Source: Promethearchaeota archaeon
Lineage (GTDB): Archaea > Asgardarchaeota > Lokiarchaeia > Sigyniarchaeales > SOKP01
Direction of reading: 5' to 3'
DNA: 64,000 nt
Assembly: GCA_019058245.1 (NCBI GenBank)
Contig: JAHPZJ010000026.1
Coordinates: 21,291-85,290 of the forward strand
Below the pieces are notes generated by a model, which was not told where the DNA came from, searched no databases, and saw nothing but the letters and a program-made list of their open reading frames with translations. Shown here in pieces: positions 37,822-50,001 of this stretch (the stretch's first letter is position 1; the number at the start of each line of letters is the position of its first letter). Both the position numbers and the translations under genes were made by a program.

Positions 37822-38037
37822 TTTAAATTCAACTCATATTTAAATTCCATCAGTAAAGAATATTAAAAAAAGTATTAGTATCTTTAATAACTCTCTCTTT
37901 TCAATTTTAAGTTTAGTACTAAAATTAATTATTTTTCAGATTTATATTAAAGCAAAACCACAAACTATTAATTTTTTATTTCATTTGTACAATTACTAAA
38001 CTTCAATAAAATTCACAAATTATGCGGTTATATTCAT

Positions 38038-38640
38038 ATGTTTAGACTCTACACCATCGAAGGAAAGATTGAGATCCCCCCCTTTTTATTTGACCAAGAA
38101 AAAGATGTCAGTGCAAGGATAATACTTTCAGAAGATTATGAAGGGATAATTACTCATGATTATGGATTTATAATAGCAGTTGTAGATGTTCTTGAGGTAG
38201 GAAAGGGGATCATCATACCTGGTAACGCCAATACTTTTCATGAGGTAATTTTTACTATCCTTACTTTCAAGCCAACAGTGTCAGAAGTAGTAGAAGGAAC
38301 TGTTGTTGAAATTGTTGATTTCGGTAGTTTTGTACGTTTAGGGCCGTTAGATGGATTAGTCCATGTGTCTCAAATTTGTGACGATTATATCTCTTATGAA
38401 CAAGTGGGAAATCGATTTATTGGAAAAGAAACAGGAAAAATCTTAGAAGTTAATGATCAAGTTAGAGCAAAGATAATCGCGGTTTCTTTAGGTACAGGAA
38501 GAAGCGGAAAACTTGGCTTAACTATGAGGCAAAAATTCTTAGGAAAAGAAGAGTGGATTGAAAATGATATTGAAGAAACTTATAGTGAAAAGGAAATGAA
38601 ACCCGCTGAATCAAATCAAGATGAAGATGATTCAACATAA
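38038..38640 (+). CDS. rpoE1: RNA polymerase subunit Rpo7 (E')
   Basis: EVVEGTVVEIVDFGSFVRLGPLDGLVHVSQ, LTMRQKFLGK. Confidence 0.96.
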   Translation: MFRLYTIEGKIEIPPFLFDQEKDVSARIILSEDYEGIITHDYGFIIAVVDVLEVGKGIIIPGNANTFHEVIFTILTFKPTVSEVVEGTVVEIVDFGSFVRLGPLDGLVHVSQICDDYISYEQVGNRFIGKETGKILEVNDQVRAKIIAVSLGTGRSGKLGLTMRQKFLGKEEWIENDIEETYSEKEMKPAESNQDEDDST

Positions 38641-48206: not shown

Positions 48207-48452
48207 TTATCTACGTCCCCGAATTTTGCGAGCTTCTCGTTCTACTTCTCGTAGAATAACAATATCATCCATGCGAATTGGACCTTTCACATTACGAGTG
48301 AGAATTCGATTTCTATCTGGACCTTCAAGAATACGTACTTTTATCTGAGTAATCTCCCCTGTAAGTCCTGTTCGACCAATTATTTGAATTACTTGTGCTG
48401 GAATCGCTAAATCTTGTACCGAAACGCCTTTTGATTTGTCTAATTTAACCAA
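48207..48452 (-). CDS. rps28e: 30S ribosomal protein S28e
   Basis: [13 protein letters not shown]...RNVKGP...LREVEREAR. Confidence 0.96.
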
Positions 48453-48470
48453 AGATTATCACCAAATTAA

Positions 48471-48842
48471 TTACTTTTTGATTTCTTCTAATTTTTTTGT
48501 TAGATCTTGTAATGCATTTTCATTTCCAGTACCTGCGTTTTCAATCGCAATTGCACTCGAAGATACGTTAATTTTTACAACATTTCCAAGTTCTTTTTTA
48601 GTTGAGAGATAACCATATGGAATTCCTTTTTCCTCACATAAAAGTGGTATATGGAATAAAATTTCTGGTGGACTCACGTCTTCTGCCATAACGACTAATT
48701 TTGCTTGAACTCTTTCAATTGATTTAGTTACTTCATTCATACCTTTTCTAATCTTCGAATCCCTTGTTTCTGCAATGGTGGTTAACGTATTCTTTAGTTG
48801 ATTTTTTAACTTTTCAGGTATTTTAAATTTTACATAAGAAAT
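48471..48842 (-). CDS. rpl7ae: 50S ribosomal protein L7Ae, apparently initiating at ATT
   Basis: The frame extends upstream of the track start: (I)SYVKFKIPEKL...KIRKGMNEVTKSIER...AEDVSPPEI. In-frame TGA lies 3 codons above the ATT; SD-like AGGAGATGA upstream. Gives 123 aa. Confidence 0.92.
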   Translation of the reverse strand: MSYVKFKIPEKLKNQLKNTLTTIAETRDSKIRKGMNEVTKSIERVQAKLVVMAEDVSPPEILFHIPLLCEEKGIPYGYLSTKKELGNVVKINVSSSAIAIENAGTGNENALQDLTKKLEEIKK

Positions 48843-48847
48843 ATTTA

Positions 48848-48903
48848 ATCATCTCCTTCAAATATACTTTTTTTAAGATATATTTTCATAAATCATCGAT
48901 TTA
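48848..48903 (-). promoter_or_regulatory. Putative tandem kink-turn L7Ae autoregulatory element in the rpl7ae 5' UTR
   Basis: mRNA AAAUC-GAU-GA-UU-UAU-GA-AAAUAUA-(loop)-UAUAUUU-GA-AG-GA-GAU: two 3-nt bulges, each followed by tandem G.A/A.G pairs. The 3' strand is the SD. Confidence 0.7.
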
Positions 48904-49150
48904 TTGTAAGAAAAGTAATTATAGAAATTAAATAAAATTTTTCATTTAGGTAAAAAACCTAAAAATTCTAATATATCAACAAAAAAAACATATAAAAATT
49001 TTATTCTAAATATAGGGAATTAAATAGAAAAGCTTATTTTTTATGAATTATTTATTAAATTGGATATATTATATTTTCTAAGTTAAATTGATTTATTTAA
49101 CAAAAATATTAAAATCGTAAAATAATTTAACTAAATGGAGGAGATCAACC

Positions 49151-49351
49151 ATTATTATACCAATCCGCTGTTTTAGTTGCGGGAAATTAATCGCTCATAT
49201 TTATAAGCCGTATCTTGAGATGATAGAAAAGGGTGAGTCTTCTGAAAAAGCATTTAAAGAATTAGGAATCGAGCGATTCTGTTGCAAAAGAATGGTGGTT
49301 TCGCATGTTGACTTGATTGATGAACTACTCAAGTTCCCTCGATTACAATAA
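49151..49351 (+). CDS. rpoN: RNA polymerase subunit Rpo10 (N), apparently initiating at ATT
   Basis: Not in the ORF track. (I)IIPIRCFSCGKLIAH...LGIERFCCKRMVVSHVDLIDELLKF. No ATG/GTG/TTG between the in-frame TAA (49118-49120) and this ATT; GGAGGAGA upstream. Confidence 0.95.
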   Translation: MIIPIRCFSCGKLIAHIYKPYLEMIEKGESSEKAFKELGIERFCCKRMVVSHVDLIDELLKFPRLQ

Positions 49352-49390: not shown

Positions 49391-49582
49391 TTACTGTTTC
49401 CCATAGTAGGAAGTCCATCTTGTCTTTCTTGCTTTCTTTTTGTAGTTTATCATTGACTTCCGGCATTTATTAGTGCAGAAATTCAAAACAGTACCATCTT
49501 TCTTTACAAACATAACGCCTCGACCGATGGGAATGTCGTAACCACAAAAACTGCATTTTTTTACTTTTACCATTATTTCCAC
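49391..49582 (-). CDS. rpl24e: 50S ribosomal protein L24e
   Basis: CSFCGYDIPIGRGVMFVKKDG...FCTNKC...RWT. The start may be the ATG at 49573. Confidence 0.95.
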   Translation of the reverse strand: MEIMVKVKKCSFCGYDIPIGRGVMFVKKDGTVLNFCTNKCRKSMINYKKKARKTRWTSYYGKQ

Positions 49583-49602: not shown

Positions 49603-50001
49603 TTATTCCTTCTTAAAAATCTCAACTTCTCCGTATTTTATCACTTTCATGTTAATTAAGGTCATATCATGCGTAATTTCGTCTCCGCGAACAGTTCTTC
49701 TTCTTTTCTCTCCTTTTCTTTGAGGTTTATAACCAATACTTCTTTTTGATACTAAGATTTTCTTTTTTACTGGTCCATGAACACCTTTTCTCATCGGAAA
49801 ACCACTAGTATCACTCCCACCAGTGATTTGAAATTCATAATTTGCGAATCCTATTAGTCCCCCCTTAATAATATCTCCGATTTTCATCCCTTCAAATCTA
49901 AACTTCTTCTGATCAATCTCAATTACCTTAGACAATCCTTTTCCGGGACCCTCGTTCCCACCACTTATATTAAATTTGTATACAATTTTTTCAGAGGACA
50001 C
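49603..50001 (-). CDS. rps6e: 30S ribosomal protein S6e
   Basis: ITGGSDTSGFPM, GEKRRRTVRG. Confidence 0.95.
   Translation of the reverse strand: MSSEKIVYKFNISGGNEGPGKGLSKVIEIDQKKFRFEGMKIGDIIKGGLIGFANYEFQITGGSDTSGFPMRKGVHGPVKKKILVSKRSIGYKPQRKGEKRRRTVRGDEITHDMTLINMKVIKYGEVEIFKKE

Follow-up and report, generated by a model that had tools for sequence, protein, structure and literature searches.

Probable AUU start codons at rpl7ae and rpoN, and an apparent class of Shine-Dalgarno-led AUU, AUA and AUC starts, in a Promethearchaeia genome

The window analysed here is a 64,000-nucleotide stretch of DNA from a Promethearchaeia genome (29% GC; assembly 76% complete). Two divergent genes within it, rpl7ae and rpoN, lie among ribosomal protein genes. 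The features of the locus, in window coordinates, are as follows.

48207..48452, minus strand: rps28e, downstream of rpl7ae, with a TTG start behind a Shine-Dalgarno (SD) sequence
48471..48842, minus strand: rpl7ae (L7Ae/eL8), 123 aa when read from ATT (TIGR03677, PF01248)
48840..48842, minus strand: AUU start codon of rpl7ae, aligned with ATG in 23 relatives
48848..48857, minus strand: SD of rpl7ae, AGGAGAUGAU, 5 nt before the ATT and also the 3' strand of the kink-turns
48848..48900, minus strand: hairpin of two tandem kink-turns in the leader of rpl7ae, a candidate L7Ae operator (pattern and pair counts)
48928..48943, minus strand: putative BRE/TATA of rpl7ae, implying a leader of ~65 nt (sequence inspection)
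48955..48974, plus strand: presumed decayed remnant of the ATG-type rpoN promoter (39 nt before rpoN in relatives), with a degenerate TATA
49016..49150, plus strand: block of rpoN promoter, ~85-nt leader and SD, with a BRE/TATA-like motif at 49027-49046 (alignment, nhmmer)
49136..49146, plus strand: SD of rpoN, UGGAGGAGAUC, which matches the anti-SD at 10 of 11 positions
49151..49153, plus strand: AUU start codon of rpoN, where 41 of 75 genomes have an aligned ATG
49151..49351, plus strand: rpoN (Rpo10), 66 aa, without an intron in the window (NF003089 profile)
49391..49573, minus strand: rpl24e, with an ATG start; ATA or ATC in 9 relatives
49603..50001, minus strand: rps6e, with a GTG start

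Both genes encode a required N-terminus that no in-frame ATG, GTG or TTG precedes. In-frame stops lie 2 codons (TGA) before the ATT of rpl7ae and 10 codons before that of rpoN. The first canonical codon inside each gene is Met35 of L7Ae (48740) and Met24 of Rpo10 (49220), the latter past two of the four zinc cysteines. In profile searches, L7Ae residues 3-122 match positions 1-117 of TIGR03677 and Rpo10 residues 2-62 match positions 1-61 of NF003089, the parts before Met35 and Met24 included. The L7Ae match is full-length (E 6e-38), scores 129.4 bits, just under the cut-off of 134.6, and is above the Pfam cut-off for PF01248; Rpo10 scores 91.9 bits, above its cut-off of 79. A preliminary description of this DNA had placed ATT at the family initiator methionine of each gene, behind a strong SD and a nearby in-frame stop, and had expected automated annotation to go wrong there. 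All of this is borne out: the ATTs stand at 48842-48840 (minus strand) and 49151-49153 (plus strand), each SD matches over 9-11 nt and ends 5 nt upstream, and a gene caller limited to ATG, GTG and TTG would clip L7Ae to 89 aa and Rpo10 to 43 aa. As judged from sequence, rpl7ae and rpoN almost certainly begin at AUU, not AUG, in this Asgard archaeon. An ATC start considered for rps6e was rejected, as the alignment of relatives puts the start at the next codon, GTG.

The ATTs are not sequencing errors, since other genomes carry non-canonical codons at the same starts (ATT or ATA in 39 others at rpl7ae; codons other than ATG, GTG or TTG in 30 others at rpoN) and both codons are unchanged in the assembled contigs of four runs, two of which may be the source of the window DNA; the remaining pair comes from a study that also produced one of these. 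One could nevertheless envision that the ATTs are not starts at all, but arise from assembly error, are bypassed by frameshifting from upstream ATGs, or are edited to AUG in the RNA. Out-of-frame ATGs do lie 10 nt (48852) and 16 nt (49135) upstream, opening frames of 9 and 13 codons, and the window codons are known from contigs rather than raw reads. Still, dozens of independent assemblies show the same state. The ATG at -10 belongs to the SD itself and in 4 relatives its frame runs into a stop ahead of the gene, any ATG lies within 30 nt at just 11 of 31 non-canonical rpoN loci, and editing would need to convert ATT, ATA, ATC, GTC, GTT and TTC alike. We regard this explanation as extremely improbable.

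The predicted pairing of the two SDs with the anti-SD is strong, at -11.5 kcal/mol for rpl7ae and -15.3 kcal/mol for rpoN. The 76%-complete assembly lacks the genes for 16S rRNA, initiator tRNA and aIF1, for which those of relatives were used. A canonical anti-SD was seen both in one member of the genus and in further families of the order; both SDs are complementary to the 16S 3' end of that genus member, at the spacing of AUG genes. An altered anti-SD as the cause of AUU use was rejected given these canonical 16S ends. The initiator tRNA genes of the family, again from relatives, are also canonical (A1-U72, three G-C pairs, CAU anticodon), base modifications being invisible in DNA, and an altered initiator anticodon was not seen among them. 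A scan for sigma-70 promoters gave matches at chance level, under a model that is irrelevant to archaea. Several of the family initiator tRNA genes (L339-L346, L349) carry inserts in the D arm, anticodon loop, variable region or T loop. These are probably introns, and may explain why a tRNA scan finds few tRNAs.

We compared the window with 75 loci of related genomes, 76 Promethearchaeia (Loki) genomes in all. In the 63 genomes aligned at rpl7ae, the start codon is ATT in 35, ATA in 5 and ATG in 23. At rpoN (n = 75) it is ATG in 41, ATA in 14, ATT in 11, ATC and TTG in 3 each, and GTC, TTC and GTT in one each; the middle position of this triplet is U in 75 of 75. On a tree built by a quick method from eight neighbouring genes, which include both genes minus their first codons, rpl7ae switches between AUG and AUH (AUU, AUA or AUC) once, in a well-supported clade of 48 genomes, and none of the 40 ATT or ATA genomes returns to ATG. 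rpoN switches 18 times. Among Asgard archaea outside the order, ATG or TTG is the usual start of the 30 rpoN genes with the best scores, and three from one family have ATA or ATC. rpoN genes with ATA or ATT behind an SD also occur in five records labelled Odinarchaeota, Thermoplasmata, Nanoarchaeota, Woesearchaeota and Bathyarchaeia (L136-L140), found with a search seed that favours Ile-start genes and so giving no estimate of frequency.

These comparisons bear on the proposal, made in the preliminary description, that the two genes are co-tuned by AUU through their common intergenic region, coupling ribosome and RNA polymerase output. The genes are divergent and both start at AUU in the window, and both are non-ATG in 14 of 62 genomes. 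However, the other genomes hold every remaining combination (rpoN ATG with rpl7ae ATH, 26; both ATG, 12; rpoN non-ATG with rpl7ae ATG, 10). Across the 13 independent pairs of genomes with different rpoN states, rpl7ae has the same state in 12, shows the opposite change in one, and in none changes the same way. The two genes can be as close as 147 nt or as far apart as 9 kb, and several genomes do not have them as divergent neighbours. In addition, the nearest relative (L128) has ATG at rpoN, nearby ribosomal genes start at ATG, GTG or TTG, and the two genes appear to have separate promoters, with the rpoN leader block a late replacement. Since the states do not change together, the distances vary and the genes are sometimes not divergent, the coupling is largely refuted by the relatives, and we consider it very unlikely; being unsupported, it is of no importance in itself. 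What stands of the earlier description is the AUU starts, the truncation and the relevance of aIF1 stringency. The rpl7ae-rpoN intergenic region is also an insertion hotspot (L066, L071, L089, L105, L129 and others), with pairs of ~780-aa membrane proteins and other long ORFs, among which no integrase was recognised by eye.

What does vary with the start codon is the strength of the SD. An SD of -6 kcal/mol or lower precedes all 31 non-canonical starts of rpoN and all 40 of rpl7ae, against 1 of 41 ATG starts of rpoN and 7 of 23 of rpl7ae. For rpl7ae this link represents a single evolutionary event; for rpoN it recurs in 16-17 of the 18 pairs that are independent (p ~3e-4 by a sign test). In most rpoN genes of the ATG type, a BRE/TATA-like motif starts 38-39 nt upstream. 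Because this is the distance expected of a leaderless transcript, the ATG-type rpoN genes, nearly all of which lack a strong SD, are probably for the most part transcribed without a leader. At other rpoN loci a similar motif lies farther upstream, with a leader and an SD. The block at 49016-49150 is common to six relatives scattered over the tree, which are the training rows of the nhmmer model itself, and has no second copy in the genome (alignment and nhmmer). The rpoN gene tree conflicts with the species tree for some rows, with weak support. Given a block shared by scattered genomes beside a decayed older promoter, and this disagreement between trees, the leader, SD and codon of rpoN appear to be swapped together, as a unit, by recombination.

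The rpl7ae leader carries a different kind of element. Two stacked kink-turns close an AU-rich hairpin; each has a 3-nt bulge ending in U followed by tandem G.A/A.G pairs (four GA in all, invariant), and they are separated by a 2-bp linker, with a stem of 7-8 bp and an outer helix of just 2-3 bp. The SD lies inside the fold. The pattern fits 62 of 63 genomes and has a single match in the window genome, and the GA pairs and bulge U are invariant in a 42-row alignment. In that alignment 90.8% of cells are paired and 4 pairs show two-sided change, better than in slid controls; more distant families keep the same GA and bulge frame with stems of wholly different paired sequence. Rfam gave no match for the rpl7ae-rpoN intergenic region. 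The element is most likely an autoregulatory operator in which putative binding of L7Ae acts on a buried SD. Autoregulation of L7Ae through a leader kink-turn has been shown in other archaea with single kink-turns (Daume 2017, PMC5539422; Huang 2019, PMC6298567). As far as the accessible text of these papers describes them, those operators share the 3-nt bulge, tandem G.A pairs, weak stem and buried SD directly before rpl7ae, and unlike them the window has two kink-turns, 2 bp apart, in an arrangement found across the order. Lokiarchaea are not mentioned in the main text of either paper. ATG-type genomes also carry the double kink-turn, which therefore predates the switch to AUU.

AUU initiation, which the preliminary description noted as rare in bacteria, is not rare in this genome. 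An unsupervised start model that allowed any codon, applied to 2494 ORFs, assigned 72.6% of starts to ATG, 11.4% to TTG, 5.1% to ATT, 4.5% to ATA, 2.0% to GTG and 1.1% to ATC, with near-cognates leading the remainder; two initialisations converged. In a controlled rerun with 12 allowed codons, decoys among them, Bacillus phage G (30% GC, 371 ORFs) showed 1.2% ATH versus 11.7-13.5% in equal-size subsamples of the genome, the SDs of the phage being stronger and its starts thus easier to call. Chunks of relatives gave 5.3% (two genus members) and 6.3% (two sister-family genomes) in the same run. A test free of any start model agrees for the window genome: in ORFs with no ATG, GTG or TTG for 30 codons, the codon positioned by the SD is ATH in 29 of 44, compared with 11.5% inside genes (p 3e-16), and the ATH codons peak 4-6 nt from the SD, like ATG and TTG. 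On the relatives' chunks alone this test was not significant (p 0.06-0.2). In 15 of 16 hand-picked genes, including uL16, IleRS, two Ras GTPases, ThiF and Usp, a Pfam domain begins before the first ATG, GTG or TTG. Orthologs of model-called ATH starts, where they could be mapped (n = 17), were few and mixed, with ATG, GTG or TTG in 6, ATH in 6 and other codons in 5. The existence of a class of AUH-start genes is firmly indicated by these patterns, and by model estimate about 1 in 9 of the genome's starts (~11%) appear to be at AUU, AUA or AUC. ACG, CTG and GTT starts also appear (G000 C13:442260(-), C13:282286(-), C28:129142(-), in strand coordinates, C22:1870(+) and L288); one ACG is common to G006, and one GTT aligns with the ATG of an ortholog.

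The reading that we favour, and consider probable, is that SD anchoring allows the normal initiator tRNA to start at AUH. The long SD would pair with the canonical anti-SD and keep the codon in the P site, where the CAU anticodon would pair with the A and U and a third-position mismatch would be tolerated. Such leniency would be lineage-wide, with ~11% of genes in the window genome and ~5-6% in the sampled relatives, and no two-gene circuit. For a given gene, a strong SD with a weak codon may be interchangeable in expression with a weak or absent SD and AUG; because of this, ATG could drift to ATA or ATT wherever the SD is strong, and in a 29% GC genome AT-rich drift would fill the class. rpl7ae and rpoN would have reached AUU independently, each gene with its own leader: rpl7ae in one switch together with a lengthened SD, its regulation most likely exerted by L7Ae on the double kink-turn that buries the SD, and rpoN in frequent flips because its whole promoter and leader block gets replaced. 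The permanence of ATT or ATA at rpl7ae is not strongly predicted by drift, yet is compatible with it.

The overall stringency of start selection is probably set by aIF1, the gene of which was found intact in 22 of the 24 genomes of the genus. In all 20 of these genus members that are readable (L032-L054), aIF1 starts at ATT directly after an in-frame stop, leaving no earlier alternative, and this ATT is invariant while a nearby internal Ile codon varies. The aIF1 start is TTG, GTG, ATA or ATG in sister families and mixed in other Asgard families: three lack any ATG, GTG or TTG before the zinc knuckle, and most of the others read have ATG or GTG available. Loss or decay of aIF1 as a cause of AUU use was rejected, as the gene is intact in the genus and its absence from the assembly, where its flanks are missing too, is uninformative. 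Sulfolobus aIF1 discriminates against AUU in vitro, and IF3 and eIF1 regulate themselves through weak start codons (PMC4705826). Because Sulfolobus aIF1 rejects AUU complexes and IF3 and eIF1 self-regulate in this manner, feedback of aIF1 through its own AUU start, like that of infC, is plausible.

A stronger version holds that the AUH genes form a condition-responsive regulon, in which the AUU-controlled level of aIF1 shifts about one tenth of the proteome, rpl7ae and rpoN included. This is compatible with SD-anchored initiation and differs in claiming active regulation rather than static tuning. The invariant aIF1 ATT beside a variable internal codon, the three further families without a canonical aIF1 start, and the infC and eIF1 precedent (PMC4705826) are consistent with it. 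However, the confident AUH genes are functionally mixed (ketopantoate reductase, aldo-keto reductase, Usp, CoA transferase, HIT, GTPases), rpoN has moved out of or back into the set 18 times, stringency would be steadied instead of varied by a homeostatic aIF1 loop, and canonical codons are available at aIF1 in most other families. We therefore consider such a regulon unlikely. A related and slightly less doubtful proposal, which we offer tentatively, is that AUH codons are regular SD-dependent starts for about one tenth of proteins across Promethearchaeia, among them core components of translation and transcription, with AUU-initiated aIF1 as a dial that shifts this class against AUG and leaderless genes. 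If so, it would represent fidelity-based global translational control in archaeal relatives of eukaryotes.

Known AUU starts in bacteria include that of infC, encoding IF3 (Butler 1987; reviewed in PMC4705826), and, according to the accessible part of its report, that of Enterococcus ebpA (PMC4447247). Like these, as far as that report describes ebpA, the genes here have AUU in place of AUG behind an SD, and as in infC the gene of a fidelity factor, aIF1 in this genus, itself starts at AUU. Unlike these rare single cases in bacteria, apparently ~11% of genes are involved here. The infC comparison also fails for the two genes of the window: the codon is not conserved (ATT in 11 of 75 at rpoN; 40 ATT or ATA against 23 ATG at rpl7ae), conservation being seen for aIF1 alone, and start fidelity is controlled not by L7Ae or Rpo10 but by a factor encoded elsewhere. 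A review of archaeal initiation lists AUG, GUG and UUG only (Schmitt 2020, PMC7531240), and SDs have been called rare in Lokiarchaea (PMC7531240; PMC12993045). The coexistence of SD-led and leaderless mRNAs with canonical anti-SD and initiator tRNA is as described there, and the SD spacing is that of the Pyrococcus abyssi EF1A model mRNA (PMC6237735); what differs is that a single gene alternates between AUG without an SD and AUH behind one. The ATT start of Kariarchaeon AtubA, termed rare (PMC13394414), was the only published Asgard case that we found. Among searchable papers, which exclude most subscription journals, we found none that reports AUH starts on a genome-wide scale in archaea. 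Our analysis adds the repeated covariation of SD and codon at rpoN, the refutation of the coupling, and a controlled estimate of AUH use.

If AUH is the start of ~300 genes per genome, many proteins of Loki-type Asgard archaea are missed or clipped in standard annotations, here for example uL16, IleRS, small GTPases and a ThiF/E1-like enzyme. Lists of eukaryote-like genes would be affected by such misannotation, which may also be one reason why SD use has been described as rare in these archaea. rpoN offers a natural experiment, repeated ~18 times, in which start-codon leniency depends on the SD, and it makes testable the long-standing question of how e/aIF1 came to select AUG stringently as eukaryotic scanning evolved.

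Other loci show related variation. For a gene at window positions 37972-38637, the codon aligned with the start is ATG in 12 relatives and ATT or ATC in 16, and the SDs of the ATT and ATC group are stronger. In a sister-family genome (G032, L156), a gene whose N-terminus resembles, by eye, that of RNA polymerase subunit A' has an apparent ATC start behind an SD. Finally, rpoN is interrupted at codon 51 by an insert of 30-31 nt in ten relatives (L110, L126-L134), scattered over the tree with 10 changes. The insert contains stop codons and a bulged hairpin, is absent from the window copy, and is likely an mRNA intron of the tRNA type. In L126 a downstream ORF has a LAGLIDADG-like motif (by eye), and in L134 the 3' end of rpoN is repeated.
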